Positions 1,241 through 26,833 of a DNA stretch of 34,277 bases are shown here, in pieces; within the stretch, counting starts at the first letter, position 1, and each line of letters begins with the position of its first letter. Source of the DNA: a virus; UHGV virus genome UHGV-0115522; one strand, written 5' to 3'. The notes beneath the pieces are model-generated. The model made no database searches, was not told the DNA's origin, and saw only the letters and a list, made by a program, of their open reading frames with translations. A program made the translations under genes and the position numbers.

Positions 1241-1274
1241 ATAACTTCGTATAGCATACATTATACGAAGTTAT
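1241..1274. other. loxP: loxP site (Cre recombination target)
   Basis: Exact ATAACTTCGTATA-GCATACAT-TATACGAAGTTAT: two 13-bp inverted repeats around an 8-bp asymmetric spacer. Confidence 0.97.
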
Positions 1275-1455
1275 CTTAAGGGTTATTGAACATGATCAAT
1301 TTACCTGTAAATCCATACAGTTAAATACCTTATCAGGTCAAATAGTGATCATTTGATCAAGGTTGCGCTACGTAAAATCTGCGAAATGTTGGCAGTGTTA
1401 GTGCTCCAGATTTCGCGTAGCGCACTTAGCACCACCAATCAATCAGAGGTGAAAA

Positions 1456-1677
1456 ATGGGATATTCAGCTGCTAAAGTGTCCACTCATCTTGAGCTTGAG
1501 AAAAACCGTGGTTACTGGCGGGCAAAAGGGTTTGATCGTGATAGTTGCCAACTGTCATTATCGCGCGGTGAAGAGAAAATAGAACGCACGCGCGGTCGCT
1601 GGCGTTTCTATGACGAGAACCATAAACAGGTAAAGGCAGAGCCAATCCTGTACACTTTACTTAAAACTATTATCTGA
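1456..1677 (+). CDS. Small protein immediately upstream of cre
   Basis: 73-aa ORF with GAGGTG Shine-Dalgarno 6 nt upstream of ATG; ends 8 nt before cre. No recognisable motif. Confidence 0.5.
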   Translation: MGYSAAKVSTHLELEKNRGYWRAKGFDRDSCQLSLSRGEEKIERTRGRWRFYDENHKQVKAEPILYTLLKTII

Positions 1678-1684
1678 GTGTTAA

Positions 1685-2716
1685 ATGTCCAATTTACTGA
1701 CCGTACACCAAAATTTGCCTGCATTACCGGTCGATGCAACGAGTGATGAGGTTCGCAAGAACCTGATGGACATGTTCAGGGATCGCCAGGCGTTTTCTGA
1801 GCATACCTGGAAAATGCTTCTGTCCGTTTGCCGGTCGTGGGCGGCATGGTGCAAGTTGAATAACCGGAAGTGGTTTCCCGCAGAACCTGAAGATGTTCGC
1901 GATTATCTTCTATATCTTCAGGCGCGCGGTCTGGCAGTAAAAACTATCCAGCAACATTTGGGCCAGCTAAACATGCTTCATCGTCGGTCCGGGCTGCCAC
2001 GACCAAGTGACAGCAATGCTGTTTCACTGGTCATGCGGCGGATTCGAAAAGAAAACGTTGATGCCGGTGAACGTGCAAAACAGGCATTGGCGTTCGAACG
2101 CACTGATTTCGACCAGGTTCGTTCACTCATGGAAAATAGCGATCGCTGCCAGGATATACGTAATCTGGCATTTCTGGGTATCGCTTATAACACCCTGTTA
2201 CGTATAGCCGAAATTGCCAGGATCAGGGTTAAAGATATCTCACGTACAGACGGTGGGAGAATGTTAATCCATATTGGCAGAACGAAAACGCTGGTTAGTA
2301 CCGCGGGTGTAGAGAAGGCACTTAGCCTGGGGGTAACTAAACTGGTCGAACGATGGATTTCTGTCTCTGGTGTGGCTGATGATCCGAATAACTACTTGTT
2401 TTGCCGGGTCAGAAAAAATGGTGTTGCCTCGCCATCGCCCACCAGCCAGCTATCAACTCGCGCCCTGGAAGGGATTTTTGAAGCAACTCACCGATTGATT
2501 TACGGGGCTAAGGATGACTCTGGCCAGAGGTACCTGGCCTGGTCTGGACACAGTGCCCGTGTCGGAGCCGCGCGAGATATGGCCCGTGCCGGAGTTTCAA
2601 TACCGGAGATCATGCAAGCTGGTGGCTGGACCAACGTAAATATTGTCATGAACTATATCCGTAACCTGGATAGTGAAACAGGGGCAATGGTGCGTCTGCT
2701 GGAAGATGGCGATTAG
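1685..2716 (+). CDS. cre: Cre tyrosine site-specific recombinase
   Basis: 343-aa translation (MSNLLTVHQNLPALPVDATSDEVRKNLMDMFRDRQAFSEHTWKMLLSVCRSWAAWCKLNNRKWFPAEPEDVRDYLLYLQARGLAVKTIQQHLGQLNMLHRRSGLPRP...MVRLLEDGD) matches P1 Cre along its whole length from memory. A few substitutions (GVASPSPTS where I recall GVAAPSATS) point to a natural variant. Confidence 0.97.
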   Translation: MSNLLTVHQNLPALPVDATSDEVRKNLMDMFRDRQAFSEHTWKMLLSVCRSWAAWCKLNNRKWFPAEPEDVRDYLLYLQARGLAVKTIQQHLGQLNMLHRRSGLPRPSDSNAVSLVMRRIRKENVDAGERAKQALAFERTDFDQVRSLMENSDRCQDIRNLAFLGIAYNTLLRIAEIARIRVKDISRTDGGRMLIHIGRTKTLVSTAGVEKALSLGVTKLVERWISVSGVADDPNNYLFCRVRKNGVASPSPTSQLSTRALEGIFEATHRLIYGAKDDSGQRYLAWSGHSARVGAARDMARAGVSIPEIMQAGGWTNVNIVMNYIRNLDSETGAMVRLLEDGD

Positions 2717-2733
2717 CCATTAACGCGTAAATG

Positions 2734-2750
2734 ATTGCTCTAATTCTTTG
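2734..2750 (+). promoter_or_regulatory. P1 C1-repressor operator-like site
   Basis: ATTGCTCTAATTCTTTG, 13/17 to consensus (first 11 positions exact), 18 nt after the cre stop. Confidence 0.55.
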
Positions 2751-2867
2751 ATATTTATGGTGACATATGAGAAAGGATTTCAACATCGATGGAAAATATG
2801 TAGGGCTGTCTGTAAGCACTAATATTCAGTCGCCAGCCGTCATTGTCACTGTAAAGCGAGCGATAGA

Positions 2868-3077
2868 ATGCCTGATATTGATTCAATATCCGTTGCGTTC
2901 CCTGTCAAAAGTATGCGTGGTGCTGAACATTTCGTGATGAATGCCACCGAGGAAGAAACACGGCGCGGTTTTGCTAAAGTGATGTCTGAGTTTGGCGAAT
3001 TTTTGGGGCACGTTGACAAAGCCCTCTCAATCAGTTCAGCAAGGTCCAAAGCGTTAACAACTTCCATGATGAAATAA
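2868..3077 (+). CDS. Hypothetical small protein between cre and ref (position of c8 in P1 as I recall)
   Basis: 69-aa ORF in the cre-ref interval; weak ribosome-binding site; no motif recognised. Confidence 0.4.
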   Translation: MPDIDSISVAFPVKSMRGAEHFVMNATEEETRRGFAKVMSEFGEFLGHVDKALSISSARSKALTTSMMK

Positions 3078-3082
3078 AAAAA

Positions 3083-3103
3083 AGCCTGGCAAGGAGCCAG
3101 GCT
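3083..3103. terminator. GC-rich hairpin flanked by an A-run
   Basis: agcctggc-aagga-gccaggct (8-bp stem) right after the 2868-3077 stop. Preceded by A8, so on the minus strand it is followed by a T-run. Direction of function unclear. Confidence 0.35.
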
Positions 3104-3209
3104 GCACAAAAGAGCGGGTTTGTATTCCGCATCCAATCAATCAAGAAGGAGTATAGCACACAGGTACTGAAGTGAAAAAATGTGATTAGCGATAAACAAA
3201 ATATCTATC

Positions 3210-3226
3210 ATTGCTCTAATTAATCG
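3210..3226 (+). promoter_or_regulatory. C1 operator-like site overlapping the ref promoter
   Basis: ATTGCTCTAATTAATCG (14/17), immediately followed by a TATAAT -10 hexamer at 3227-3232, about 95 nt upstream of the ref ATG. Confidence 0.7.
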
Positions 3227-3324
3227 CTATAATTGAGCCGCAGTTTTTGTCAACTACGAAGACGTTGCCATTACTTCACTCCTTGACATCATTGGCGGCC
3301 ATTAGGCCGCCTTTTTTTTGCCAT

Positions 3325-3885
3325 ATGAAAACAATCGAACAAAAAATTGAACAGTGCCGCAAGTGGCAGAAGGCAGCCAGAGAACGAGCGATCGCTCGGC
3401 AACGGGAGAAGTTGGCTGATCCGGTCTGGCGAGAATCTCAATATCAGAAAATGCGGGATACTCTCGACCGCCGTATCGCTAAACAGAAAGAGCGCCCACC
3501 AGCCAGCAAAACGCGGAAAAGCGCGGTAAAAATAAAATCTCGTGGCTTGAAGGGGAGAACACCAACGGCGGAGGAACGGCGCATCGCCAATGCTCTTGGC
3601 GCTCTCCCCTGCATTGCCTGCTATATGCATGGAGTAATATCTAATGAGGTGTCTCTGCACCATATCGCCGGTCGTACCGCGCCGGGTTGTCATAAAAAGC
3701 AATTGCCACTTTGTAGATGGCACCACCAGCATGCAGCTCCGGCTGAAGTAAGAGCAAAATACCCCTGGCTGGTCCCTGTTCATGCCGATGGTGTGGTTGG
3801 AGGCAAGAAAGAATTCACCCTGCTGAACAAGTCAGAGATGGAGTTACTGGCTGACGCCTATGAGATGGCAAACATCATGCACTAA
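3325..3885 (+). CDS. ref: Ref (recombination enhancement function), HNH-type endonuclease
   Basis: 186-aa translation from ATG 3325 (MKTIEQKIEQCRKWQKAARERAIARQREKLADPVWRESQYQKMRDTLDRRIAKQKERPPASKTRKSAVKIKSRGLKGRTPTAEERRIANALGALPCIACYMHGVISNEVSLHHIAGRTAPGCHKKQLPLCRWHHQ...) matches P1 Ref from memory. The listed 3247 start is an upstream in-frame extension. Confidence 0.85.
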   Translation: MKTIEQKIEQCRKWQKAARERAIARQREKLADPVWRESQYQKMRDTLDRRIAKQKERPPASKTRKSAVKIKSRGLKGRTPTAEERRIANALGALPCIACYMHGVISNEVSLHHIAGRTAPGCHKKQLPLCRWHHQHAAPAEVRAKYPWLVPVHADGVVGGKKEFTLLNKSEMELLADAYEMANIMH

Positions 3886-4073
3886 TAAATATATTATTTT
3901 TAATGATAAATGATTGACAACTGACAAGTGACTTCAGTCAGAATCATCACATGCCCGGTACGGATGGATCCCCTTTCAAATATTCCATGGACGGCACAGT
4001 CTGAGTACCGGGCGCTACCTTCAGTTGTATTGCTAAGCCGCCGCTGGTGGCTTTTCTTTTTTGTAGGGGCGCT

Positions 4074-4718
4074 ATGGATAAGAAAATATGCGTTGTTTCA
4101 ATGAGCGTCGGCAAACCGGCGTCAATGACTGCTGCATGGATCAACAATGAGCTGATAATGGCTGAGCGGACCAGCTACCCTGAACGCCGCCGCGATATGG
4201 AACTCCAGCTGCTGCGCGAATTGCGAGAAAAAGAGGAAAAGGGTTTTATCGTGCTGGTGGAAGAGGAAAACAGCTTTATTACCGGTCGAGTTGGCCAGCG
4301 TGTAAGGTTGCGTGATCCCTTCATGAACGGCAGGCCGGTACTAATTGAAGCAATGCAGATTTACAAGGAGTTGGAACGCCAGAAAGCGATCAAGTTACCG
4401 CGCAAGGAATCCGGCAAATACATCCTCCACCAAAGCATCTTCGATTCCGAACACGATAAAAAAGGCGATGAGTTTTTCAACATCAACTGGAGCGAAATAA
4501 CGACAGAGCATGTTCTGACGTTGTTATGCTGCTTCGCAACAGAATACAACAACGTGGTAAGCGCAGACTACATCAGGACAATGACAGACACCGTTACTAA
4601 ACAAGACAACGAATATTCACCATATGAGCCATTTGTAAATATGATAAAAGCATTTTATCGGATGGAGCTCACTAAAGTTCCTCAAGGTAAATTAACAGGT
4701 AAGGATAACATCTTTTAA
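4074..4718 (+). CDS. Hypothetical protein (position of mat in P1 as I recall)
   Basis: 214 aa from ATG 4074 (MDKKICVV...) with AGGGG ribosome-binding site; listed ORF starts 27 nt upstream at a non-ATG codon. Confidence 0.6.
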   Translation: MDKKICVVSMSVGKPASMTAAWINNELIMAERTSYPERRRDMELQLLRELREKEEKGFIVLVEEENSFITGRVGQRVRLRDPFMNGRPVLIEAMQIYKELERQKAIKLPRKESGKYILHQSIFDSEHDKKGDEFFNINWSEITTEHVLTLLCCFATEYNNVVSADYIRTMTDTVTKQDNEYSPYEPFVNMIKAFYRMELTKVPQGKLTGKDNIF

Positions 4719-4771
4719 GCACAGTAATGAGGTGCTTAGATGTTCATATCAATATCCTAACTCTCTGCATC

Positions 4772-5461
4772 TCATAAATCTGATAGCCACTTACTATCTA
4801 TGGACTCAATCTCCGTCAGCGGAATTGATGGGAAAAAATATCCCTGAGCGCCCCATAGCCCTATCCCTTTTGATAACTTATGGCAATCAATGTTTTCGAC
4901 GCCTTCAGCGATGATATTCGGACATAACTTTTTTAAATTGCTAATAATGACATCAAAATGAGGCTTAATCATATGCTCTTGAAAAAATGACTTATCAAGT
5001 TTTATTGCATGATATTTATTTTTAATTAATGCTTTCATGGTGGCGTTACCACTTCCAAAATCATCAAGCCAAACATTATCTGTCAAAGTCAGTAGAAAGG
5101 ATATGATGTAATCCTCATCGCTTAAATCAGGATAGTTTTCTGATATCTCAATCGCTATAAATTTATTGTTTATTAGTAGTTCTTGAATTTGTTTATTGCC
5201 ATATATATATAAACAGGTATCATAATCTGCATTGATAGAGCATAATATATTATGGCATTCAAAAAAATACTTATACTTGATTATTGTGTTAAGTTGAGAT
5301 TTTAGCAAGTTAATCTTCATCTTGCTTGTAAACATACCTAATACTTTCTGAGTAGAAAGAATAGCCCCCTCGTTGGAATAAAATCTGCTCAACACTTCCA
5401 CTGCTATCAACTTGTTAGTGCTTGTGGAAATGATTGGTTCTACTATGTAGATAACTTCCAT
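4772..5461 (-). CDS. Standalone EAL-domain protein, predicted c-di-GMP phosphodiesterase
   Basis: 229 aa with EAL signature positions in order: EVL (in AVEVLSRF), EISE, DDFGSGNAT, IKLDKSF, IIAEGVEN, AQGYFF. GAGGG-type SD upstream of ATG. Gene is visibly AT-rich relative to the P1-like flanks. Confidence 0.8.
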   Translation of the reverse strand: MEVIYIVEPIISTSTNKLIAVEVLSRFYSNEGAILSTQKVLGMFTSKMKINLLKSQLNTIIKYKYFFECHNILCSINADYDTCLYIYGNKQIQELLINNKFIAIEISENYPDLSDEDYIISFLLTLTDNVWLDDFGSGNATMKALIKNKYHAIKLDKSFFQEHMIKPHFDVIISNLKKLCPNIIAEGVENIDCHKLSKGIGLWGAQGYFFPSIPLTEIESIDSKWLSDL

Positions 5462-5683
5462 GCTCCCACCCTCTATTTTTAAATTGGTTGGCTTTAGCAG
5501 ATAAAGTGCCCTTTATATTTACAGGGGTTACACACTATGTCAATTTATTTATCTGTAGTGAAATTGATAAAAATTAAATAATAAAAAGCAGCAACTATGA
5601 CACAAATCAATATTTTTATTTTTTGCACAACTTCTTGATTTCAGTGCTGCTGTATCTCTATTCTTGTTCAAAGCCTCTTTAGA

Positions 5684-6417
5684 ATGGTGGTAGCTATGTC
5701 AGGAGTCTGTTACTTCATCCTTATAAAGAAACCGATAAATTTTCAATTTCTTAAGGATTTCTTAATATTAAATTATGGTGATGTGCTGTTGCTTAAACAT
5801 TCTGAACGCGAATTCTTACAAACCTATTCAGATAAATATATCGAATTCGAACTTAATGATAGTGCTGTAAGAAACTATTTATCTTGTCACAATCACCAAG
5901 GGAAGCAACTTCTGGATAAATGCCCACATTTGCTAAAAAAGTCTTTTGCTTATCCTGATTTATTAATCAGGATGATCGATAATATAAGTGACCAGAATCA
6001 TATACATCCTGATTTTAAGGATGCTTTAACTTTTTCATTACTTTCAATTTTTAGTGATGTTGACAACCTTAGAGCTTTTCTTAAGTCTGGTATGCCTACT
6101 TTCTCAGGGAAAGTACGCAGCATATTTCTTTCAGATGTATCTAAACATTGGAAACTAAGAGACTTAACTGATTATCTATACATAGTGAGAGTTTAATAAA
6201 GAAAAAACTCTTATTAGAAAACACCTCCTTCAGTAAGTTATTACTTGATACACGAATGGCTTTTGCTATTAAATTACTAAAGCAAACCCGCCCCCTCAAA
6301 CAAGTATCAAAAAGTTGTGGTTTTAGTAGCATATCGTACTTTGTGTGCCTATTTAGGCAGTATTATAATTGTACACCATGTGAATATGTAAAACATCAGT
6401 TATCATCTGGGAAATAA
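5684..6417 (+). pseudogene. AraC-family transcriptional regulator interrupted by a frameshift
   Basis: Frame 2 ORF (5684-6196) ends with the first helix of an AraC HTH (KHWKLRDLTDYLYI). Frame 1 continues from about 6172 to stop 6415-6417 with the rest of the domain (SESLIKKKLL...LDTRMAFAIKLLKQTRPLKQVSKSCGFSSISYF...YYNCTPCEYVKHQ). The shift is near 6181-6190 and not in a homopolymer. Confidence 0.55.
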
Positions 6418-6455
6418 GATGCATTTATCTCCCAGATAGTATTGTAATATTAAAC

Positions 6456-6704
6456 TCAGTCAGCATTTAGTAGCAGAGCATTATCTATGATGATCTGCTC
6501 CCATTCTTCGAATGCCCGGTCGCGGACGCCCTGGGGAACGCTGTTTGTTTTGAAATCGACGACCGTCCGCCATTTCCCGTCCGGACGGTACATGCGCAGA
6601 GCTTTACTTCCCCCTTCCCTGCGCACCTCAACGTTATGCTTGTCAGCAAACTCTTGTAATGCTCGTAGCGTCCCATGCTTTACTGTGTAGTATCGCTTTT
6701 TCAA
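6456..6704 (-). CDS. lxc: Lxc/Bof-like C1 co-repressor (tentative)
   Basis: 82-aa ORF; size and position (downstream of the darB-like gene, same strand) fit P1 lxc/bof as I recall. Assignment rests on synteny and length, not a verified alignment. Confidence 0.5.
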   Translation of the reverse strand: MKKRYYTVKHGTLRALQEFADKHNVEVRREGGSKALRMYRPDGKWRTVVDFKTNSVPQGVRDRAFEEWEQIIIDNALLLNAD

Positions 6705-7141
6705 GTTTTCTCTCCAGCCTGTGCCAAGGCTTCAACTTCCAAATCGTAAGACTCAAACTCATAGTCCTGGTCGTCAACTTCTTCAGGGACTGGCAGTAAA
6801 TGCCAGGCTGAGTATATCTGACCATTATCAAAACGCTCCTGGCTGTAGAGCGTCGCGGCTATGAGTGTTAGCGCCGGGCGGTCATAACGGTAAAATTTGC
6901 GAACGTCACGGTCAACGAGACGACCGAAATTACCATAACCGCGCTCCAGTAATAATTTTTTAATTTCCGGCCAGTATGGGCCATAGCTGCGGTACAGGCG
7001 GGGATTTTTCAGTAATCGCCCGCGTAGCCCTGACAGGAAGAAATCAACGTATTCGTCTTCTGTCTTTCCTAACAACGCTGTACGGAGTACCGCCTCAAGA
7101 TATGTTTTATTCGGTTTTATTGTATCAGATAGTGTGGCCAT
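6701..7141 (-). CDS. Hypothetical protein (position of ulx in P1 as I recall)
   Basis: 146-aa ORF overlapping the next gene by 4 nt (translational coupling); no motif recognised. Confidence 0.5.
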   Translation of the reverse strand: MATLSDTIKPNKTYLEAVLRTALLGKTEDEYVDFFLSGLRGRLLKNPRLYRSYGPYWPEIKKLLLERGYGNFGRLVDRDVRKFYRYDRPALTLIAATLYSQERFDNGQIYSAWHLLPVPEEVDDQDYEFESYDLEVEALAQAGEKT

Positions 7142-7174
7142 ATTATGCGACGCCCGGCGAACCGGGCGCTCCTG

Positions 7175-10100
7175 TTATGCGTATTGTTGGATGACGGCCA
7201 GAACGTCCGCCACGTTGTGTTTTGTCTCGATAATCCACCAGTTGCCCGGGAAATCGCTGTTCTTCGCCTTCGCTGGCAGCCAGCGAGCGCCGAATTTTTT
7301 CTTGATTGCGTCTTTAGCACGGAAAAGAACGCCTTTCATGCCGGACGCCTCCTGAAGCCCAAATACCTCACCAGCTGCGAATTTTGGTGCGTACATCATC
7401 TTCAGGTCGGCGGTGGATACGCGATAATTCAGACCAAGAGACTGAGCTATGCTGGTGGCATCACCCTGTATTGATGATAACTCTTCTTGTTTCTCGTTTC
7501 TGGCGGCAATTTCTTCCTCCGTGATGTTGCCTAGGGCCAGGTTTATCCGATCAGCGTCGGCCTGTTTCTCTTCATCGGTGCGCCCGGCAAGAACCGTGTT
7601 AATTCTCTGCAATATCTCAACATGATTCTTGCGCATGCTAAGCAATTCCGGCGTAACCTCGTTAAGGTCCACCAGCCCAAGGATGGCAAGGTCGGAAAAC
7701 ATTGATACCAGGTTGTAGGTCATGCGATAGCTGAGTTGCCCATAGGCTGATGGCAACTGCACCGCATCCATTTGATAGGCATCCATAAATTTAGAGCCGT
7801 CGTTTACGACATCCGCAATTGCCGGTGTGATTTTCCCTGTGGTGGCGACCTCCCTGATTGCTGTTACCCACGATTGAGTCAGCGCGGCGACTGCATGATT
7901 CAGATTGGCTTTCCGTTCTGCTGCAATACGCGCGCTTGCAGCGTCCATTGCCTGCTTGATCTCGTCTTTATTGCTGTAAATGCCAATGGTGCCAAACTGT
8001 GCTGTGGTGATCTCATAATCTGACGCCCGGAACTCATGGGTACCGAAAATGGCATTGGTGACCTCAAGTTCAGAATCCCCGTTACGAGTAGCCCCCTGGC
8101 TTGTTTTCTCCGGCATTCTGGCGATCGCATCCGCTATTTTCTCCTGAATTGCTTCAGGGGATAGCGTATCTCCGTATGACGCGATTACTTCGCCATAATT
8201 GGAGCCAAACAGTTCAGTCAGGAATACTTCTGCCAAACGGACCTGGCGGTTATTCCCTTCCGACATCATACCAAGCACCCATTTTGCAATTGACGACTTC
8301 AGCGCGCCGTCACGGCGATCCTGGTAAACCGCATGCTTCAGTGGGTCCGTATAGGTACCAACAAAATCAATGCTATAGCCTGACTCTGTAGTCTGAACGC
8401 CGTATGAGTCAGTGATTTTGATCATGCCGCGCTGCTGGAAACGGTAGAAATCGTCACAGGAAATGATGTCGTTAATCCCGGCGATGGAGACGCCACCACT
8501 GATTTTCTGCATAACAGCATCTTCATCGGGAGTTACATCCACCTGTTTATCCAGCGTCTTCACATCCCAGTTACCCGATTTGGTGCCTTTGAAGGTAAAG
8601 ATGATCTCCACGTCTGCGCGCTGGCTGTCGAAGTCCAGCGACTTAATGCGAACGATATCACCGGCACAATCGTAGTATTGGCCTACACGCCATGAGCGAT
8701 CGCCGATAACAAGGAACTCATTCGCATGGTTAACCAGATCAGGATCAACATCCAGAATGCCTTTATTTATTGCATCCTCCACCAGCGGGCGCAGGCGTTT
8801 GATATCCGTCGCGGCCTTCTGAGTACGGTTCAATAATTTCTCATAGCGGGAGATGGCTTGAGTGATATTAGCCTTGCGCTGAATGGCGCTTTTCAACGAC
8901 GCGCGATAATGTGCTAACAACGTACGGTCTGTGTGATGGACGCTACCCCAGCGGGCCTTCCAGTCTGCATTATCAGCTGCTTTGGCCATTACCGCCTGTT
9001 TAAATTTAGCTACCTCGGCGGTGGTCTTTTCAAGTTCCGCTTTACTTCGCTCTAATTCAGCGGTAAGAGCCGCAACATCCTCGCCAGCTGCATGTTGCGC
9101 CTTGATGTAGTTCTGAAGGTCGATAGCGGCCTGTTCTTTCTGGCGGGCGCGTTGCGCGGCTTTCGCCTTATCCATTTGAACCTGCATCATTGCCAGACGT
9201 TCGCCATCATCCTTAGCGGTATACATCTGCATTTCGATCATATCGTTGGCGTCGGCGTTCTCCATTTCTGACTTATCTGAACGGAGGATATCGGAGATCC
9301 AGCCTGCTTTACGCTTCAGCGTCTTCAGTCGGTATTCATCGAAAGAACCCTTGCCGCAGTAGTAATGAACGCGAACGCTTGCACGGTTGGAGCCAACTCG
9401 GGCACCGCGACCGTTACGCTGTGCGACACTGGCTGGTGTCCATGGCAACGTCAGATGATGGATGTCAGTCGTTCCTCGATGCAGGTTGATACCCACCTCT
9501 GCCTTTTTGTTGCAGATGATGATCGGAGTCCGGCCCTCCTGGAAGTCGGCTGCAATCTTTTCCAGACCGCCCAACGACATTTCATTTTGCTGCGCGATAT
9601 AGGCGTCATACAGAGCCATTTGCTCGTTGTATTTCGCTATCTGTGCATCTGTTGGTTCATCCGGTAACTCTTTCGGCGGTTTAACCGCTTTCAGTTTCTT
9701 ACCGGTTTTACCTGCCTCGGCAACCGTCTGAGCATTCAGGATCCTTACCTTTGAAGGTTCAAGGTTAAGAGCATTGCAGATAATGCGCTTGAGCTTCTGG
9801 TGCTGCGTTTTTTCGTCGGTGAAGATGATTTGCTTCCCTTCCGGGAAAAACTCCTTCAGCGTGGCAATCAGCTTCGCGTATTTGGGCGTAACGGGGTGAG
9901 TTACGGTCTGTTCGTCAATGCCAAACCTGGCCAGGCGCTTATTCACTTCCTGCTCGAACGCTTCCGGAACCTGCAACTGAATAAACTCGCCCTTATCTAT
10001 CAGGGAGTATTGCGATTGCTGCGTGATTGAATCATCACTGTCGTCGTCTTCGCTGGTGGCTTGTTTAGGCAAACTGTCCGCCAGCTGCTGCACCGCATCG

Positions 10101-11200
10101 GCGTACTCCGGCAGGAAACGATAGGTGATCCGGCGATAGTACAGGTCCATGTCAGTACATACGCGGTCCATATCCCTGATTATTGAGAAGATCGGACGGG
10201 CTTTCTCGTGCTCAATCACTCCGTCTTCATCGACCGAGGTCGTTACGCCATTGTTGGCTTTGGCCACCGCTTCCGCCTGCTGGCGTAATTCTTCATACGC
10301 CGCCAGTTGTTCTTCAGTAAGTGGTGCATCCTGCTGGTGTTCGTCCAGTTCCGGGATCTCCACGGTATCCTTAACGTCTTCCGCCGTTTTAAGCGTTGTC
10401 CAGCGATGGAATATGCCGCGCAGCGCATCAAGGTTTTCAAAGCCCACCAGCGCCATTTTTTCTTCAACTTCACCGCTGATTTTCTGTACCGTTTCCAGCC
10501 TGGTCTTGCCGAAGAATTTAACGAAGTCATCAGGACCGTAGATCCCCATCTTCTGCCAGTATTCCTTCGGCAGCACATGAGAAAGCATGTTGTATGCATC
10601 GATCGGGGTGTTAACGACTGGCGTTGCAGTCAGGAGAACCGGTCCGCGCCCACCATTCTTTTTCATCAGGTACGCGTTTTTAATTGCCATATCCCGCGCC
10701 GATTGCGCCACCGCGCTGGTGGGCAGATAGGCCAGTTGTGACGCTTCGCGACCATTTTTATAGCTATTGCGGTAGTTGTGACCTTCGTCAGCGATCACAC
10801 TATCGAAGCCCATATCCTCAAAGTACGGATACTTCTCTGCTTTTTCGGTACCGGTATCTGAATACTCCGACAATACCCGGCGACGCGCGGCCTCTTTGCG
10901 GTGGGAGTCGGAGTCCATTGCGCTGGCTACGCGCCCGGCGGCAACGAAGTCATAAAGCATATCCTGTGCATGCTCATCTACGGTGTCATCACGTAGCGGA
11001 GTGCGGGCGTATTGTTCTTTGGTAAACACGACTGCACGGTAATTTGAGTGCGGGATCGCGTTCATCCGCGCCGTGATAGTGGCTTCATCTGCCAGTTTTA
11101 GGGCATCGCGCATAACTGGAGTGCCATCAGTACCAAGAACAGGAGCACCTCCCACGCTAACGCGCGGGCCCCGAATCTCACCGTTCTGAAACCACAACAA
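7175..11200 (-). CDS. DarB-like superfamily-2 helicase, apparently missing its 5' portion
   Basis: 1341-aa ORF with helicase motif II (VIADEGHNY), motif III (LLTATPVVN) and motif VI (QRNGRGARVG), but no Walker A (GxGKT) in the 135 aa before DEGH. Frame closes at 11207-11209 just upstream of a TTG start. Long C-terminal extension. Confidence 0.65.
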   Translation of the reverse strand: MLWFQNGEIRGPRVSVGGAPVLGTDGTPVMRDALKLADEATITARMNAIPHSNYRAVVFTKEQYARTPLRDDTVDEHAQDMLYDFVAAGRVASAMDSDSHRKEAARRRVLSEYSDTGTEKAEKYPYFEDMGFDSVIADEGHNYRNSYKNGREASQLAYLPTSAVAQSARDMAIKNAYLMKKNGGRGPVLLTATPVVNTPIDAYNMLSHVLPKEYWQKMGIYGPDDFVKFFGKTRLETVQKISGEVEEKMALVGFENLDALRGIFHRWTTLKTAEDVKDTVEIPELDEHQQDAPLTEEQLAAYEELRQQAEAVAKANNGVTTSVDEDGVIEHEKARPIFSIIRDMDRVCTDMDLYYRRITYRFLPEYADAVQQLADSLPKQATSEDDDSDDSITQQSQYSLIDKGEFIQLQVPEAFEQEVNKRLARFGIDEQTVTHPVTPKYAKLIATLKEFFPEGKQIIFTDEKTQHQKLKRIICNALNLEPSKVRILNAQTVAEAGKTGKKLKAVKPPKELPDEPTDAQIAKYNEQMALYDAYIAQQNEMSLGGLEKIAADFQEGRTPIIICNKKAEVGINLHRGTTDIHHLTLPWTPASVAQRNGRGARVGSNRASVRVHYYCGKGSFDEYRLKTLKRKAGWISDILRSDKSEMENADANDMIEMQMYTAKDDGERLAMMQVQMDKAKAAQRARQKEQAAIDLQNYIKAQHAAGEDVAALTAELERSKAELEKTTAEVAKFKQAVMAKAADNADWKARWGSVHHTDRTLLAHYRASLKSAIQRKANITQAISRYEKLLNRTQKAATDIKRLRPLVEDAINKGILDVDPDLVNHANEFLVIGDRSWRVGQYYDCAGDIVRIKSLDFDSQRADVEIIFTFKGTKSGNWDVKTLDKQVDVTPDEDAVMQKISGGVSIAGINDIISCDDFYRFQQRGMIKITDSYGVQTTESGYSIDFVGTYTDPLKHAVYQDRRDGALKSSIAKWVLGMMSEGNNRQVRLAEVFLTELFGSNYGEVIASYGDTLSPEAIQEKIADAIARMPEKTSQGATRNGDSELEVTNAIFGTHEFRASDYEITTAQFGTIGIYSNKDEIKQAMDAASARIAAERKANLNHAVAALTQSWVTAIREVATTGKITPAIADVVNDGSKFMDAYQMDAVQLPSAYGQLSYRMTYNLVSMFSDLAILGLVDLNEVTPELLSMRKNHVEILQRINTVLAGRTDEEKQADADRINLALGNITEEEIAARNEKQEELSSIQGDATSIAQSLGLNYRVSTADLKMMYAPKFAAGEVFGLQEASGMKGVLFRAKDAIKKKFGARWLPAKAKNSDFPGNWWIIETKHNVADVLAVIQQYA

Positions 11201-11209
11201 AAAAAATCA

Positions 11210-11720
11210 GGAATAAAAAACACCACACAAACACAGCACTGTACCCCCCCTCATAACTGAAAAGCGCCGCCGCCCCCGCCCGAAGGGCGGGAACAACATC
11301 GCTTTTAATTATGAATGTTGTAAGTACATTGTCATCGCTGTCAGTCTTCTGGCTGGAAGTCCTCAGTACACGCTCGTAAGCGGCCCTCACGGCCCGCTAA
11401 CGCGGAGATACGCCCCGACTTCGGGTACACCCTCGTCGGGACCACTCCGACCGCGCATAAAGGCTCTGTCATGGCTGAAAACGGGTATGGCTTAGCAGGG
11501 CCGGGGGTGGGTAAGGTGAAATCTATCAGTCAGTACCGGCTTACGCCGGGCTTCGGCGGTTTTACTCCGGTATCATATGAAACAACAGAGTGCCGCCTTC
11601 CATGCCGCTGGCGCGGCATCAGGACAATTGAAGAGTGACGGCGCACATTAACATCAAACAGACTTGTTAAGCAGTCTTTCAGGGTGTAATCTGAAGACCT
11701 GTTAAATAGTCTCAGAGGTG
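11210..11720. other. GC-rich, hairpin-dense noncoding segment at the darB break
   Basis: No convincing ORF. Perfect hairpin cccgccc-gaag-ggcggg (about 11276-11292), cccgac/gtcggg (about 11414-11440), atgccgc-tggc-gcggcat (about 11592-11609) and a near-palindrome cagtctttcag/ctgaagacctg just upstream of stbD. Confidence 0.3.
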
Positions 11721-11724
11721 TGTT

Positions 11725-11976
11725 ATGCCCAGTATCATTTTGTCTGACACCAGTGCAAGCGTCAGTGAGCTGAAAAAAAATCCGATGGCAACTGTCAGTG
11801 CCGGAGAGGGGTATCCTGTTGCCATTCTTAACCGGAATCAGCCAGCATTCTACTGTGTCCCTGCTGAGCTCTATGAAAGAATGCTTGATGCCTTGGATGA
11901 CCAGGAGCTGGTAAAACTGGTTACTGAACGCAGCAGTCAGCCTCTGCATGATGTGGACCTGGACAGTTATTTATGA
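11725..11976 (+). CDS. stbD: RelB/StbD-family antitoxin
   Basis: 83 aa (MPSIILSDTSASVSELKKNPMATVSAGEGYPVAILNRNQPAFYCVPAELYERMLDALDDQELVKL...) matches plasmid StbD antitoxins from memory; overlaps the toxin gene by 4 nt (ATGA). Confidence 0.85.
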   Translation: MPSIILSDTSASVSELKKNPMATVSAGEGYPVAILNRNQPAFYCVPAELYERMLDALDDQELVKLVTERSSQPLHDVDLDSYL

Positions 11977-12260
11977 CTTATACAGTAAAATTCCGGGATG
12001 ATGCACTGAAAGAATGGCTCAGACTGGACAAGACCATTCAGCAGCAGTTCGCAAAAAAACTGAAAAAATGCAGTGAAAATCCTCATATAGCTTCTGCAAA
12101 ACTACGTGGATTAAAGGACTGCTATAAAATCAAACTTCGCGCATCAGGTTTTCGTCTGGTTTATCAGATTATTGATGATATGTTAATTATTGCGGTCGTC
12201 GCAGTAGGTAAACGTGAACGCAGCAACGTTTATCATCTCGCCAGTGAACGGATGAAATAA
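11973..12260 (+). CDS. stbE: RelE/StbE-family toxin (mRNA interferase)
   Basis: 95 aa (MTYTVKFRDDALKEWLRLDKTIQQQFAKKLKKCSENPHIASAKLRGLKDCYKIKLRASGFRLVYQIIDDMLIIAVVAVGKRERSNVY) with RelE/ParE-fold hallmarks; coupled to the antitoxin. Confidence 0.85.
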   Translation: MTYTVKFRDDALKEWLRLDKTIQQQFAKKLKKCSENPHIASAKLRGLKDCYKIKLRASGFRLVYQIIDDMLIIAVVAVGKRERSNVYHLASERMK

Positions 12261-13119
12261 TATCCTGGTCAGCACTCTTTCTTACCTGCTTCCATTTTTT
12301 CAGTGATTCTTTTCCTGCATGCAGAAAAAAAGCCTACCCTGTGGGCAGGCATAACAGACAATCGCACAGTCAGTGTTGAAATTAATGATGTCACGCATTA
12401 TACCCGGTGGATACACAAACCATCCCTGCAAATGCATTGGCATCCTAATCAACGTCTGAAACAACTGCAATGGCCGGACCTGTGATTTCAGAGAAAGTTA
12501 TTATGTTTATTGAATATAACCGAAGTGATAAATAAAAGTATTATCACCTTTAATATTTATGCTTATTGCGTGGTTTTATCTGGTTATATAAAGCACAGAT
12601 GTTCTTATTATTTTCTGAAAAATAACCATATGGATCGATTTCCCCCACCCAGCCGAAGCGGTTCGGCTCGTTCGGCGTATCGTCGACACTGAAGCGCTTA
12701 TCCATTTCGTTCCAGCGGTAAGAGTTGTCGCTGTCGCTGACGAATGCCATCGGGTCGCTAAACAGCGTGATCCGCCATGCGATCAAAAAGCGTAAGTGTT
12801 TCCGACAGACGAGCCGGTGAAAAAAGTGGTGTGTCTGGCAATACAGGCATCGTCCCCGAAATGGACGATGCCGTTGAAGGACTGGGGTATGGCAATAAGC
12901 CGCTTTATTATCGGATTCAGTGACCGCCTGGACGGTTACTTTTGAGAAAAGGCATTTACACACAATCCTAAACAGACTCCTATATTTCAGATTTTGTTAT
13001 CAACGCATTTCAAATCTCTTAGAAATCATTACTGTCGTCATATTTTCCGAGGCAGCTCACCACCTAACTATGTCTTATCAACAATATTTTGTGAAGGATA
13101 TTTATAATGTAAAGACACA

Positions 13120-16100
13120 TCAGAAACGATATTCCACACTCAACATGGCAGATGTATTATGGTATCCATGTTCTCCAAGTTGAATGCCTGCATCAGCCCG
13201 GAATGCTACTTCTGGTGTTATCATTCCCACAACACCACCATTTATTTCTCCGATATCACGCGCACCATCCTGGTATATACTTACACCATTCATACTGGTG
13301 CCGAAAACACGACTATTGTGCAACCAGTGTGCCTCCACAAATGGTCTGAACGGAACCGCATACCGCGTATTTTTACCGTTTTTGCTGGTAAGCCATGTTC
13401 TTGCTCCCAGGCGGGTGAGAATATTTCCGTTACCGGTATTTTCAATACTGGTTCCGTTACTTTCATGATATTTGTCTGATTTTACATTCATCCGGACAAC
13501 CTGAAGCTGCGGCTGAACATACCATTCATGACTTCCCTTGTAATTGTCGGTAAACTCTCCAGCCTTCCATGAATATCCTGCTTCCAGAGATACCGTAAAC
13601 CCTTTTGACTTCCATGACTCAGCAGGCAGCCGTTCTCCATTTATATGATTATCAAACCAGCTGTATTGCAGCCAGCTATCAAGATAAGAACCATTGTGTG
13701 TTTCATCATTGGCATACCATGTTGCATAAAGACCCGCTGTGTATCCATTCATTCTTCCTTCCGAATGGTATCCGGTGCTCAGGGCATTCGTACTGTTATT
13801 ATTATGACCATAGCCAGCCATCATACCTGTATGCCAGCGATCGGTACCATTCAGGCTCCACTGAGCTATATCTCCCCCTATTAACACAACGTAGCTATTC
13901 CCCCGGGTTCTCAGCTGACTACTGTTGTCACGCCAGCGATTATGTTTTCCTTTATTATACATCCAGATACCTGCTTCATTTTCTTCTCCTGTCATGTGGC
14001 TGATATACAACTCCTGTCCCTGTCGTTCATACAGATTCGTTACAAACAGATTATTTGCAGCAGCAATACTGGCAACATAGCTACCTGCCTCAGGACGCAA
14101 ATTATTATCATGGCTTTCCGGTACAGCTTCAGGTTGTGGTACAGGAATGTCTTTTCTGCTAATCAGATACCAGTTAGTGCTGTTAATCCCCTGACCACGT
14201 TTCAGTATGTAATCATAAGCTCCGGCTGTAATACGTTCCGTCTGAATGAATTCAGCATTATCAGCATTGCCACTGACGTGAATCACTTCAATCCCATTAA
14301 GTGTCTCTGCACCAGTACCACCGGCCTGAGTAACAGCGACACGGGTACGGCCACTGGCATTACCTTTAATCACCAGACGATCTGTTTTCGAATTGTCACC
14401 ACCTGTTTCTGTCTGGAGGAGAATAAGTCCATTTCTGCCAGTGTAATTCCCTCCGACAGTCAGTATATTACCCGGCATATATGTAGTGAGATCGACTATA
14501 CCACTATTGCTCAGATTTCCTGCAACGCCCCCAAACCCGGAGAGTTTGCCCTGCTCTTCAACAATGACCTGGTTACTGCCGAGCATCACCGGTGAATCTG
14601 CGTTCCCCAGTATCACTGTCCCCTGAATAATATCTGTCATCCCGGTCCATTTTGCGTTATCGCTAATGTTCAGTGCACCTGCTCCCGTCTTGCGAACATT
14701 ACCATAACCACTGATATTGTTGGTAAGCTGCCATGCTGATGTACTGTTCAGAGTTAATGTGCCATAGTTATCAACAAAGGCTGTCCCCAGATTATCAGCC
14801 GTGGATACAGCCAAATGAGCCCCCTTATTCACGGTAAAAACACCGGAAAAATTACGATTATTACCCGTTATATCAAGCATTCCCCCATTTATGTTCAGAG
14901 AACCATCCCCTGCAATAGTACCTGCAGATTCTCCTCCATTATTCAGTATCAGGCTTCCGCCATGAATGTTCAGCACAGAGCCTGCAGCCGTCAGTAGTTT
15001 GCTTATTGTCTGAGGATACCCATTCATATCCAGTTCTGCGCCACGGGATAAATATAAATACTCAGTCCGACCAAGAGCATCAGGTGCAGCAAGAATTAAT
15101 ACGCCAGATTTAACCTCTGTATTTCCTGTATAATTGTTTGTTGCAGAAAGTATAAGAGTACCATTACCTGATTTTGTCAGACTTTTGCCGTCCCAGCCAT
15201 CATATAATAAAGGTGAAAGATTATCGGAAAGAGAAACGCCTATGTTCAGAGTGGCATCTTTTTCTATATTAAAGGTTCCATATCCCATCCCTTTTGTATT
15301 ATTCCATCTCAGCATGGATATCAGTTTGTTATCGTCGTCATTTAAAGACGTATAAACATAACTTTCAGCACCTTCTGTCAGTAATGCATTGTATTGTACA
15401 ATGTGACTATTATCAGCGATCGAGATACCTGTGTCTGACGACAATAATGTGTAATAGTCCTGAGTCCAGTTCTTAATTGATGTGTCTATATTAAGCCATG
15501 AATCACTTTTTAATGTAATAGTATTTGCGTGAACATTAGCATTTCCTACAGACAGGTTCATAGATGCGTCTTCATCAATACTTATATTTCCGTTAAAAAT
15601 GGAGTTCTTGCCTGACAGATAAACAGATGAGCCATTCCCAATCATTAGCCCACCATTAATTGCTGTTGCGTTATTGATGTTTTTAATAATTAATTCATTT
15701 GTACCATTAACAGGTATACTAGCTAGTTTAATATCACCATTAATCACAGAATCTGAATAAATATCTAATGAATTATACCCGCCAGAAAAAATTATTGATG
15801 TATTATAAGCATCTTTTTGGCTATTATATAATCCTGAAAGATTACCATGATTACTAATATGGATATCTTCTCCATAAACAGAGCAACCACCGTCGGGGCC
15901 ATATCCCCCCTGAACAATACCGTTATTATTCAAAGTGATTTGATTTCCAGAAATAGCATCTCCCCCTTGTTTTATTCCATATCCTCCAGATATCATGTTG
16001 CCGTTAGTAATGAAAAGATTACTACCATTAATACCATCACCACCGTTTACGCCATTACCGCCCAATATTCCTCCGGAATTATGCACTGTAATATTGCTAC

Positions 16101-16617
16101 CGGTTACACCGGAACCACCTGTCCCACCTACATCATCACCTCCGTATATACTTCTGTAATTATCAACTATAATATCATCCCCGCTTAACCCTGCACCTCC
16201 GCTACTTCCTGAGCCACCAAGACCATTACCCCCATATACATTTCTGTAATTGTTTATAGATATTTTGTTGCCACTAACAGCAATTCCACCATTATATCCA
16301 TCGCCTCCCCAAACACTACCATTATTATTTAGCGTAAAGTTTTCACCGTAGACACCTGCACCACCGATTGATGTATTGCTTGTTCCTCCTTTGATGTTAA
16401 TACTGCTTTCAACAGATAGTATATTTTGAGTATAACTTGTTTTATACGGCACGCTGATATTAAGCGCCGCGTTTCCATCAACACCTGTAATACTCCTGGT
16501 TATACTTTCAGGTATACCATTACCATTCAGTTGTATTGTTTGCGCACCAGAAAAATGAGACTGCACAGAATAAATTATACTGACCAGAAATTGTAAAATT
16601 CGTATATTCTTATTCAT
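13120..16617 (-). CDS. Autotransporter (type Va) with AIDA/pertactin-like glycine-rich passenger and C-terminal beta-barrel
   Basis: 1165 aa. N-terminal signal peptide (MNKNIRILQFLVSIIYSVQSHFSGAQT), long passenger with reiterated GG-x-G-x-NG-type repeats, and a C-terminus ending ...SAMLSVEYRF typical of outer-membrane barrel closure. AT-rich. Confidence 0.85.
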   Translation of the reverse strand: MNKNIRILQFLVSIIYSVQSHFSGAQTIQLNGNGIPESITRSITGVDGNAALNISVPYKTSYTQNILSVESSINIKGGTSNTSIGGAGVYGENFTLNNNGSVWGGDGYNGGIAVSGNKISINNYRNVYGGNGLGGSGSSGGAGLSGDDIIVDNYRSIYGGDDVGGTGGSGVTGSNITVHNSGGILGGNGVNGGDGINGSNLFITNGNMISGGYGIKQGGDAISGNQITLNNNGIVQGGYGPDGGCSVYGEDIHISNHGNLSGLYNSQKDAYNTSIIFSGGYNSLDIYSDSVINGDIKLASIPVNGTNELIIKNINNATAINGGLMIGNGSSVYLSGKNSIFNGNISIDEDASMNLSVGNANVHANTITLKSDSWLNIDTSIKNWTQDYYTLLSSDTGISIADNSHIVQYNALLTEGAESYVYTSLNDDDNKLISMLRWNNTKGMGYGTFNIEKDATLNIGVSLSDNLSPLLYDGWDGKSLTKSGNGTLILSATNNYTGNTEVKSGVLILAAPDALGRTEYLYLSRGAELDMNGYPQTISKLLTAAGSVLNIHGGSLILNNGGESAGTIAGDGSLNINGGMLDITGNNRNFSGVFTVNKGAHLAVSTADNLGTAFVDNYGTLTLNSTSAWQLTNNISGYGNVRKTGAGALNISDNAKWTGMTDIIQGTVILGNADSPVMLGSNQVIVEEQGKLSGFGGVAGNLSNSGIVDLTTYMPGNILTVGGNYTGRNGLILLQTETGGDNSKTDRLVIKGNASGRTRVAVTQAGGTGAETLNGIEVIHVSGNADNAEFIQTERITAGAYDYILKRGQGINSTNWYLISRKDIPVPQPEAVPESHDNNLRPEAGSYVASIAAANNLFVTNLYERQGQELYISHMTGEENEAGIWMYNKGKHNRWRDNSSQLRTRGNSYVVLIGGDIAQWSLNGTDRWHTGMMAGYGHNNNSTNALSTGYHSEGRMNGYTAGLYATWYANDETHNGSYLDSWLQYSWFDNHINGERLPAESWKSKGFTVSLEAGYSWKAGEFTDNYKGSHEWYVQPQLQVVRMNVKSDKYHESNGTSIENTGNGNILTRLGARTWLTSKNGKNTRYAVPFRPFVEAHWLHNSRVFGTSMNGVSIYQDGARDIGEINGGVVGMITPEVAFRADAGIQLGEHGYHNTSAMLSVEYRF

Positions 16618-17201
16618 ACTGTTTTTTCTTTAGTGATGCATTTTTTATCAACCATACAAGCACATTATTTCATTGATACTAATCACATCAGGATGAATGT
16701 TTTTTCTCAATAGAAATAAGTGTCTTTATTTCTTACCAATTTATTCTGGTTATTCCTCTTATCCAGACGTCTCGTGATACTCCCTGTATTTATTATAGAG
16801 TATATATATGTACTGCGTTTAAATCATGAAGACGACAACCTGTTTTACATAAATTATTCCTAAGTATTTTTCCAGAGAAGACCTAGGTATAATGATGTGC
16901 ACTGTCTGGTTTTCTTACAACTGACTTAGCGATCTGCATATCCGTGATAACGCCTGAATAAATAGGACGAGAGAACTCTTAACCAAATAATCTAACACTT
17001 TTAATCGACAGGAATTAAAAACCCGGGGAGGTTAAAAAAACACAAAAAAATGGATGTTTATTCAACTCTGGTTACGTACCATGAGGACTGCATCCACAAT
17101 GCACCGGCAATTAAATGGCTTTCATTGATTGATTTTTTATATCTGTGATGATTTTTTGCTCCATTCCTCAAAAAATGGACGCAACTTCCCCTCTGCGGCT
17201 C

Positions 17202-17555
17202 TCAGCTGTATACCCGCTGTCGTGCCAGTGGCTCATGCATCATGACCAGCTCTGCCAGACGGTAGCCCCGCTTCAGCCCCGTAAACCGCATCTGACCTCC
17301 GCACAGGATGCACTTCAGCGGGTCAACCTTCAGTAACCGCTGATACACCCTTCTCCGCCTGATTTGCATCGCCGTTTTTCTCTCCGTTTCTGTTATGACG
17401 TACACAACATTTTCCAGTAACCGGCGCTTCACCGGACTCAGGAACCCGTTGTCAACGCCACGATGTTTGACCGTTCTGGGGATGCGGACGATTTCCTGGA
17501 CTGCTTTATCATTCCAGCCCGCATTGTTGGCGGTACATTTTGGGGCTGACTGCAC
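17202..17555 (-). CDS. C-terminal fragment of an unidentified gene cut by the adjacent IS (possible transposase remnant)
   Basis: 117-aa ORF whose 5' end overlaps the end of the IS3-family transposase. Contains CILCGG; family not recognised. Confidence 0.25.
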   Translation of the reverse strand: MQSAPKCTANNAGWNDKAVQEIVRIPRTVKHRGVDNGFLSPVKRRLLENVVYVITETERKTAMQIRRRRVYQRLLKVDPLKCILCGGQMRFTGLKRGYRLAELVMMHEPLARQRVYS

Positions 17556-19043: not shown

Positions 19044-19095
19044 GTTTTATCTCCTGAGAGTCCAGGAAATCGTCCGCATCCCCATTTACCGTCTT
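17509..19095 (-). mobile_element. IS3-family insertion sequence, degraded
   Basis: Boundaries approximate, set from the extent of the transposase ORFs and the start of the adjacent IS911-like element. Confidence 0.5.
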
Positions 19096-19108
19096 ATATC
19101 TGTAGTGG

Positions 19109-21229
<2,121 letters not shown>

Positions 21230-26312: not shown

Positions 26313-26322
26313 CCGTTTTTAC

Positions 26323-26826: not shown

Positions 26827-26833
26827 GGTAAGT

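Follow-up and report, generated by a model that had tools for sequence, protein, structure and literature searches.

DarB of phage P1 is a defence against restriction that combines an N6-adenine methylase with an SF2/SNF2-type helicase and is packaged in the capsid. The packaged protein is injected and blocks type I restriction, so that incoming DNA is protected from EcoK/EcoB. An SF2 helicase core without motifs I and Ia cannot bind ATP. The signal that targets DarB to the capsid resides in its N-terminal 30 residues, and the product of the ulx gene helps DarB to localise (PMC9024508).

P1-derived plasmids are defective P1-like phage-plasmids, mostly of the p0111/IncY type, many of which carry mob genes or an oriT (PMC10879196). 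Also relevant here is the repA4 and stbD/stbE (relBE-type) module of IncFII/IncI plasmids such as R100/NR1, pEntH10407 and pEC958; the role of repA4 is taken from earlier work (PMC4398462, PMC2762410).

The window analysed here, the whole 34,277-nucleotide stretch of virus genome UHGV-0115522, contains a helicase-like open reading frame (ORF) that is very probably an ordinary pseudogene remnant of P1 darB, left by illegitimate recombination with IncI/IncFII-type plasmid DNA. The scar is common and almost certainly dead, and it is not a new system.

The darB remnant and its lost domains

The following features define the remnant (darB') and its immediate surroundings:

7175..11143, minus strand: darB' remnant, DarB residues 934-2255 and the stop codon (blastn, blastp, megablast)
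11144..11200, minus strand: chance 19-codon 5' extension of the ORF in plasmid-derived DNA (sequence, three-way alignment)
11143..11144: recombination joint between P1 and IncI/IncFII-type DNA, plus strand ...AACAGG/AGCACC...
6456..7141, minus strand: the P1 genes ulx (6701-7141) and lxc/bof (6456-6704), both intact and next downstream of darB'

A single ORF of 1341 aa occupies positions 7175-11200 of the minus strand and begins with a TTG at 11200-11198. In a blastn comparison with P1 (OP279344), 7175-11143 on this strand corresponds to the 3' 3969 nt of darB at about 98% nucleotide identity, and P1 1-9876 as a whole corresponds to window 1258-11143 (97.9%). At the protein level, the match covers DarB residues 934-2255 of 2255 without gaps (blastp, 97.4% amino-acid identity over 1322 residues), which puts the cut at residue 933/934 and leaves the 3' 59% of the gene. 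The megablast match to 15 P1/P7-type phages stops at the same base as the match to P1. The other 57 nt of the ORF, 11144-11200, are IncI-type plasmid DNA and not darB, as a three-way alignment of P1, the window and IncI DNA demonstrates. An earlier note, made from the sequence alone, had proposed a recombination breakpoint that removed the 5' part of the gene, and the P1 alignment bears this out. It had placed the breakpoint where the reading frame closes, at 11207-11209. An in-frame TGA, the nearest upstream stop, can indeed be read from the sequence at 11209-11207, but it is not the breakpoint. The breakpoint is at 11143/11144 and falls within the ORF, 57 nt from its 5' end.

The helicase features that the ORF retains are:

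10778..10789, minus strand: helicase motif II, DEGH, ORF residue 138 (DarB 1052)
10619..10630, minus strand: helicase motif III, TATP, ORF residue 191
9398..9421, minus strand: helicase motif VI, QRNGRGAR, ORF residue 594, inside Helicase_C
9392..9580, minus strand: Helicase_C, ORF residues 541-603 (Pfam PF00271, E = 1.2e-6)

Motifs II, III and VI had been recognised in the earlier note, correctly, as had the lack of motif I. A search of the whole ORF for G.GK[ST] gave no match, and no Walker A motif emerges in its first 137 residues after alignment to P1 DarB. In full-length P1 DarB (2255 aa; gp010/P1_gp011), motif I reads GTGLGKTT at residues 855-862 (GLGKT at 857), upstream of the cut. According to Pfam, P1 DarB carries N6_Mtase/Eco57I at 145-291 and the SNF2/ResIII N-lobe, which includes motif I, at 833-911, both upstream of the cut, and Helicase_C at 1455-1517, downstream of it. 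The methyltransferase domain that the note ascribed to P1 DarB thus exists and has been removed here; the window ORF has no Pfam match to N6_Mtase/Eco57I. Compared with P1 DarB, the remnant is without residues 1-933, and with them went the 30-residue capsid-targeting signal, the N6-adenine methylase domain and helicase motifs I/Ia. It shares with P1 DarB motifs II-VI, Helicase_C, the C-terminal region and the location of ulx and lxc downstream, whose products differ from those of P1 at one and zero amino acids, respectively. The P1 annotation records three lxc promoters at or within ulx.

A naturally short form of DarB was not found among the homologues searched. All diverged homologues (35-82% identity) have 2198-2313 aa and an SNF2 N-lobe, and none of them begins at the equivalent position. 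Shorter DarB proteins were found only at identities of at least 92%, which points to recent breakage of the P1-type gene.

Expression signals and decay of the remnant

Two terminator-like hairpins lie upstream of darB' on its coding strand:

11260..11306, no assigned strand: G+C-rich hairpin flanked by A/T runs, terminator-like in both directions
12332..12350, minus strand: intrinsic-terminator-like site between the autotransporter gene and darB'

The autotransporter gene is the nearest same-strand gene upstream of darB'. The P1 promoter PdarB has been lost here, and a Shine-Dalgarno sequence is lacking at each of the three candidate starts. The sole promoter-like site upstream of darB' (11335-11308, minus strand, 10/12 matches) is separated from it by the 11260-11306 hairpin. 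Neither a promoter of its own nor a ribosome-binding site serves darB'. Without a capsid-targeting signal, methylase, motif I/Ia and its own promoter, the remnant presumably cannot act as P1 DarB does. Furthermore, the Dar partner genes (hdf, darA, ddrA and ddrB) and the P1 capsid genes are absent from the element, which, unlike P1, is thus without the head genes and partners needed for DarB delivery. The suggestion of the earlier note that the ORF is probably non-functional as an antirestriction factor is therefore supported by the loss of the signal and of PdarB, the lack of a Shine-Dalgarno sequence, the absence of the partners and the erosion of the remnant in sister plasmids.

This erosion takes several forms among relatives that carry the same joint, namely the loss of one nucleotide at 9666, three insertions of 1 nt each, a truncation by IS1 at 8259 and the presence of cydAB where most of the remnant would be. 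Sequencing errors could account for some of the 1-nt indels. The 4-kb darB' frame is nevertheless open in most sampled copies, which counts against the pseudogene reading, as a useless frame of that length would be expected to break over time. Its openness can be explained by the recency of the event and by gene conversion from intact darB alleles. Substitutions within the lineage mostly match full-length alleles (25 of 37 in one relative), which points to gene conversion and makes them uninformative on selection. For the branch leading to the window allele, a rough three-way comparison with P1 and pCREC-629_2 gave an ambiguous dN/dS near 0.2; this is not a neutral value, but most of the branch probably predates the cut.

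A different reading of the open frame is that of a working, separately expressed protein, consisting of the C-terminal helicase lobe and a DarB tail of about 740 residues and translated from an internal ATG (M30 or M46). We consider this unlikely, and the same applies to a role for such a fragment, for example in disturbing the Dar system when P1 phages superinfect, or in binding Ulx. Besides the open frame, this reading can draw on the 1296-aa PGAP version of the product, a "helicase-related protein" of which exact copies occur on 86 contigs, on the intact ulx gene directly downstream, whose product is the DarB localisation helper, and on the promoter-like site. However, such an architecture is seen in no diverged homologue, the terminator-like hairpin separates the ORF from the promoter-like site, none of the candidate starts has a Shine-Dalgarno sequence, and, by what is generally known of SF2 enzymes, a protein without motif I/Ia would not bind ATP. 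Moreover, sister plasmids tolerate frameshifts, the IS1 truncation and a near-complete replacement of the remnant.

It is very improbable that the DNA rather than the protein matters, with the Chi-rich darB fragment aiding ClpXP-dependent alleviation of restriction by type I systems. Plasmid-borne darB fragments have been reported to alleviate EcoKI restriction through Chi and EcoKI sites and without DarB protein, an effect obtained from small multicopy vectors (PMC11109961). The remnant has six Chi sites, three per orientation, and EcoKI sites occur at 11581 and at other places in the window. The window as a whole holds 23 Chi sites as well as EcoKI sites, so the remnant is not singled out, and relatives have shed most of it with no apparent consequence. 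Taken as a pair, the proposals that an internally started fragment is retained as a decoy against the Dar or Ulx machinery of superinfecting P1-like phages, or that the Chi-rich DNA measurably boosts restriction alleviation on entry into a new host, are very improbable; if true, the decoy fragment would equip the degraded plasmid with a kind of exclusion.

The joint and the plasmid-derived DNA beyond it

The preferred reading, a pseudogene remnant of darB, places the origin of the scar at the 11143/11144 joint. Neither microhomology nor an insertion sequence end was found there, and the two partners share no bases at this point. Beyond it, the plasmid-derived block comprises:

11144..11724, plus strand: repA4-type region of IncI/IncFII replicons, non-coding, from just downstream of the replication origin
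11725..12260, plus strand: stbD/stbE, a Phd/YefM antitoxin of 83 aa and a RelE/ParE toxin of 95 aa (RefSeq annotation, identical DNA)

The repA4-type DNA is 91.9-93.9% identical to IncI-gamma/K and IncFII plasmids, in which the matching DNA begins 366-368 bp past the repA/repZ stop codon. Its 376-bp inner core (11244-11619) recurs in IncFII plasmids, L015 among them, and in thousands of other records. The stbD/stbE (phd/relE) pair is transcribed away from darB', and the order repA, repA4 region, antitoxin and toxin recurs in the IncI plasmid L008 and in pEntH10407. The DNA that abuts the cut resembles the IncFII/IncI module, with 92-94% identity and the same succession of repA4 region, 83-aa antitoxin and 95-aa toxin. 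Unlike that module, the copy here is detached from its replicon. As it has no repA, CIS, origin or DnaA box (the last two were not found in 11144-11724), the block cannot act as a replication origin. A search of the repA4-type DNA for Ter sites yielded a sole core match, GTTGTAAGTA at 11317-11326, which has one mismatch and is not above chance.

The earlier note had described this flank as A-rich, then GC-rich and dense in hairpins. An 8-A run on the plus strand at about 11200-11207 is followed by an A-rich patch and then by a G+C-rich stretch with the 11260-11306 hairpin, whose arms are 22 nt long, so the A-run and the hairpin hold. Dense in hairpins is true only to a moderate degree. Single-stranded folding of 11210-11640 gave z = -2.74 against shuffles, with 0/100 shuffles as good, compared with z = -1.53 for adjacent coding DNA. 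The GC content is nearly flat across the change (0.53 to 0.55), and the AT skew changes sign. An Rfam scan of 10900-13200 (E <= 1) returned no match, so no known RNA family accounts for the structured stretch.

With a 200-bp probe covered to at least 80%, the identical joint was found in 133 PLSDB plasmids and in 137 of 5426 complete E. coli genomes (about 2.5%), that is, in complete plasmids and genomes from unrelated studies. The 5' 2.9 kb of darB has no match in the window or in a complete 94.5-kb sister plasmid, which makes this a deletion rather than an inversion. An assembly chimera, or one end of an inversion that only relocated the 5' half of darB, might be suggested by the order of P1 segments around IS30, in which the window differs from its sister plasmids and which indicates that the lineage does rearrange, but this explanation has next to no probability given the recurrence of the joint and the missing 5' part, and is refuted, as far as a single complete sister plasmid can show.

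The scar would have formed when a P1-like phage-plasmid was joined, probably in a single ancestral event, to IncI/IncFII-type plasmid DNA by illegitimate (non-homologous) recombination. The donor DNA is the repA4 region from just beyond the replication origin together with the stbDE pair, and further cargo comes after it. The joining deleted the 5' 2.8 kb of darB, and this event and later IS-associated losses would have cost the element the neighbouring genes for portal, protease, lysis, Dar, tail and lytic replication. The persistence of the remnant most likely reflects only the recency of the event and a position adjoining the retained ulx-lxc immunity-modulator genes.

The degraded P1-derived element

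P1 DNA amounts to 17.8 kb in the window and to 26.4 of 88.4 kb in the sister plasmid pESA118_2, and P1 9877-48848 is absent from both. That segment carries prt, pro, lyz, ddrB, ddrA, darA, hdf, the tail genes and repL; pESA118_2 has lost pacAB as well. Like the described P1-derived plasmids, the window and its sisters keep cre, ref, lxc, ulx, c1, coi, phd/doc and pmg genes and are without lysis, tail, head and packaging genes, and the sister plasmids also carry MOBH mobilisation and resistance genes (PMC10879196). By annotation only, and for the sisters rather than the window, these functions comprise mobI(A/C), a TraI-domain protein, MOBH typing, qnrS2 and tet(A). The joint-bearing NZ_CP019262, NZ_CP029493 and NZ_CP033632 are listed with the P1-derived plasmids in Dataset S7 of Pfeifer & Rocha, Nat Commun 2024 (PMC10879196). 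In that paper darB goes unmentioned; the exact darB/repA4 joint is resolved in the present analysis.

The feature raises no new biological question. It provides a concrete case of a phage-plasmid losing its phage half through fusion with IncI/IncFII-type DNA, and its value lies chiefly in annotation. Across Enterobacteriaceae, RefSeq gives this product the name "helicase-related protein", but it is a truncated DarB. As it has no ATP-binding motif, methylase or packaging signal, the label of pseudogene or fragment would suit it better. The 11143/11144 joint is a handy clonal marker, since it picks out a single widespread lineage of mobilisable, resistance-carrying plasmids derived from P1.

The truncated darB gene and its reading frame

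Judged by its sequence, the darB' ORF is a 5'-truncated copy of phage P1 darB. In a megablast search of 6500-12500 against phage records, P1, P7, SJ46 and their relatives match at 97.5-98.2%, and all these matches stop at query base 4644, i.e., window position 11143. In a local blastn comparison with OP279344, a complete P1 genome, window 1258-11143 aligns to P1 1-9876 with 97.9% identity. P1 darB comprises 6768 nt (2255 aa), of which only the 3' 3969 nt are retained, corresponding to DarB residues 934-2255 (97.4% amino acid identity, gap-free).

Landmarks of darB' and, from Pfam, of full-length DarB
7175..11200, minus strand: darB' ORF, 1341 aa, TTG start
10789-10778, minus strand: helicase motif II (DEGH), ORF residue 138
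ORF residue 191: helicase motif III (TATP)
ORF residue 594: helicase motif VI (QRNGRGAR)
ORF residues 541-603: Helicase_C (Pfam)
DarB 145-291: N6_Mtase / Eco57I, lost from the window
DarB 833-911: ResIII / SNF2 N-lobe, lost from the window
DarB 1455-1517: Helicase_C, kept in the window

As the earlier note had described, motifs II, III and VI are present and motif I is missing; no G.GK[ST] motif occurs across the whole 1341-aa ORF. Motif I of DarB (GFGTGLGKTT) occupies residues 853-862 and the retained part starts at 934, so the cut lies inside the helicase core, past motifs I/Ia and ahead of motif II. The methyltransferase domain, proposed to have gone with the 5' part, indeed lies upstream of the cut.

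The assertion that the frame ends exactly where the sequence changes needs one correction. Read directly, the in-frame TGA upstream of the ORF (11209-11207) sits within a T-run (an A-run on the plus strand) with G+C-rich DNA beyond, but the boundary with P1 DNA lies 57 nt inside the 5' end of the ORF. Codons 1-19 of the mechanical ORF (11200-11144) do not belong to darB; they lie in the adjoining DNA, which happens to stay open in this frame. The plus-strand A-run at 11200-11207, just upstream of the TTG, differs in length by one base among relatives bearing the same joint (L011, L012), and thus the apparent ORF start and the upstream stop move between copies.

The joint and the DNA beyond it

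Alignment to full-length P1 DarB places the breakpoint at 11143/11144. This position is the single refinement to the earlier note, whose observation is confirmed and whose interpretation, a recombination breakpoint behind the missing 5' part, is supported. In a three-way alignment of P1, the window and IncI, the switch is clean (...AACAGG/AGCACC...), and neither bases common to both sides nor an IS terminus was found at the joint. These features point to illegitimate recombination as the probable mechanism. Neither the window nor the complete sister plasmid pESA118_2 (94.5 kb) contains the 5' 2.9 kb of darB, so this part was deleted and not relocated.

Features beyond the joint and elsewhere in the window
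11144-21623: non-P1 block with the repA4/stbDE piece, the 1165-aa autotransporter gene, IS3-family remnants and IS30
11260-11306: hairpin with 22-nt arms in repA4-type DNA
12350-12332 and 11306-11260: terminator-like hairpins between the autotransporter gene and the darB' ORF
13120-16617, minus strand: autotransporter, 1165 aa, with beta-barrel, autochaperone AC_1, pertactin and VirG-insertion-domain matches
20016-21167: 383-aa transposase of the intact IS30, an element that abuts P1 76641 inside pmgP
4772-5461, minus strand: EAL-domain gene (c-di-GMP phosphodiesterase-type), 229 aa, between mat and lxc
43-861, plus strand: ORF with a methyl-accepting chemotaxis protein signalling domain, 272 aa, at the left window edge

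From 11144, the DNA is 92-94% identical to IncI-gamma/K and IncFII plasmid sequence that starts 366-368 bp past the repA/repZ stop, and the homology continues to 12259, taking in an 83-aa antitoxin (Phd/YefM) and a 95-aa toxin (RelE/ParE). In IncFII plasmids, the repA4 region occupies this place directly after oriR; it has been reported to be important for stable inheritance and to contain ter sites (PMC4398462). In pEntH10407, the order is likewise repA1, repA4, stbD and stbE (PMC2762410). The aligned IncI comparator has a DnaA box and an AT-rich origin immediately left of where the homology begins, and the repA4-type stretch of the window has no DnaA box. The captured DNA is an origin flank only and not a second replicon.

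This repA4-type DNA is what had been noted as a GC-rich, hairpin-dense stretch. Folded as ssDNA, it scores z = -2.74 relative to shuffles, and the darB coding DNA next to it scores z = -1.53; no Rfam family matches the repA4-type stretch. Its 376-bp non-coding core (11244-11619) is ~92% conserved in thousands of IncF/IncI plasmid records (at least 5000). Such strong conservation is notable by itself for non-coding DNA adjoining an origin.

Evidence for and against a functional remnant

DarB is packaged into the capsid and injected, with residues 1-30 serving as the capsid-targeting signal (PMC9024508). darB' has lost this signal along with the methylase and the ATP-binding motif, and PdarB is gone too. 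With P1 DarB it shares only homology in the retained part and the same neighbours, whereas targeting signal, methylase, motif I and partner genes are all missing. No Shine-Dalgarno sequence stands before any of the three candidate starts (TTG 11200, ATG 11113, ATG 11065). The nearest same-strand gene upstream is the autotransporter gene, and hairpin 11306-11260 stands between the sole promoter-like site (11335-11308) and the ORF.

No full-length homologue starting at the equivalent position was found. DarB homologues at 35-82% identity all measure 2198-2313 aa and possess the SNF2 N-lobe, and forms of reduced length occur only at at least 92% identity, implying that no natural family begins here. 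Among joint-bearing relatives, darB' has decayed further: one nucleotide is deleted at 9666, single nucleotides are inserted at 7802, 7993 and 8042, IS1 truncates the gene at 8259, and cydAB has replaced most of the remnant. Sequencing error may explain some of the single-base indels, but not the IS1 and cydAB events. Together with the lost domains and expression signals, this decay supports the earlier view that the fragment is probably non-functional.

A DNA-level role via Chi sites, as reported for cloned darB fragments (PMC11109961), is conceivable but very unlikely; Chi sites are scattered over the entire window, so such a role would not be specific to darB'. The case for a protein still at work is weak. 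Most copies keep the frame open and dN/dS is ~0.2, a rough estimate for a branch probably mostly older than the cut. Of the 37 substitutions that separate two joint-bearing copies, 25 match alleles of full-length darB, indicating gene conversion and not independent evolution.

Spread of the joint and architecture of the window

A 200-bp probe centred on the joint (at least 80% coverage) detected it in 133 plasmids of PLSDB and in 137 of the 5426 complete E. coli genomes. Plasmids from Salmonella, Shigella and E. albertii are among the carriers, and one copy is chromosomal. Because the joint recurs unchanged across so many separate assemblies, it is no assembly artefact and points to a single ancestral event. 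The exact 1296-aa PGAP product, starting from M46, is listed at NCBI as "MULTISPECIES: helicase-related protein" (86 contigs).

Pfeifer & Rocha 2024 (PMC10879196) described plasmids that arose from P1-like phage-plasmids through the loss of phage genes, mostly of the p0111 type and often with a relaxase or oriT and resistance genes. That paper does not mention darB, and its Dataset S7 contains the joint-bearing NZ_CP019262, NZ_CP029493 and NZ_CP033632. The joint-bearing replicons belong to this class of P1-derived plasmids. This lineage of degraded phage-plasmids has already been described, and the darB' remnant in it is an ordinary gene scar that can serve as a lineage marker and for correcting annotation but is otherwise of little interest. 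The E. coli MB52 chromosome (L012; NZ_CP073943.1, 2336056-2345456) carries an integrated copy of the darB'/repA4/stbDE/autotransporter block in which IS1 has cut darB', in line with the published observation that P1-like elements sometimes reach chromosomes.

In pESA118_2, 26.4 of 88.4 kb of P1 are retained; prt, pro, lyz, the ddrB-ddrA-darA-hdf operon, the tail and baseplate genes, repL and pacAB are absent. In the window, the autotransporter gene lies in lower-GC DNA adjoining the stbDE pair and is cargo throughout the plasmid lineage. Nested IS3-family transposase fragments followed by the intact IS30 fill 17202-21623, past which P1 homology restarts at P1 76641. Compared with pESA118_2, the IS30 has the opposite orientation, and the window lacks the P1 replication/partition segment that adjoins the element there, which implies an additional IS30-associated rearrangement.

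The EAL-domain gene takes the place of the EcoPI res/mod genes of reference P1, a swap also found in OP279344, the P1 record "del res del mod". The chemotaxis-domain ORF lies outside the P1-derived DNA, which begins at 1050. Finally, 25823-30835 (~5 kb, pmgT to phd) has no nucleotide match to P1. Identical sister plasmids are annotated in this stretch with a DNA polymerase III theta-like gene and an S24 peptidase-like gene, and it looks like a variable part of the P1 backbone.
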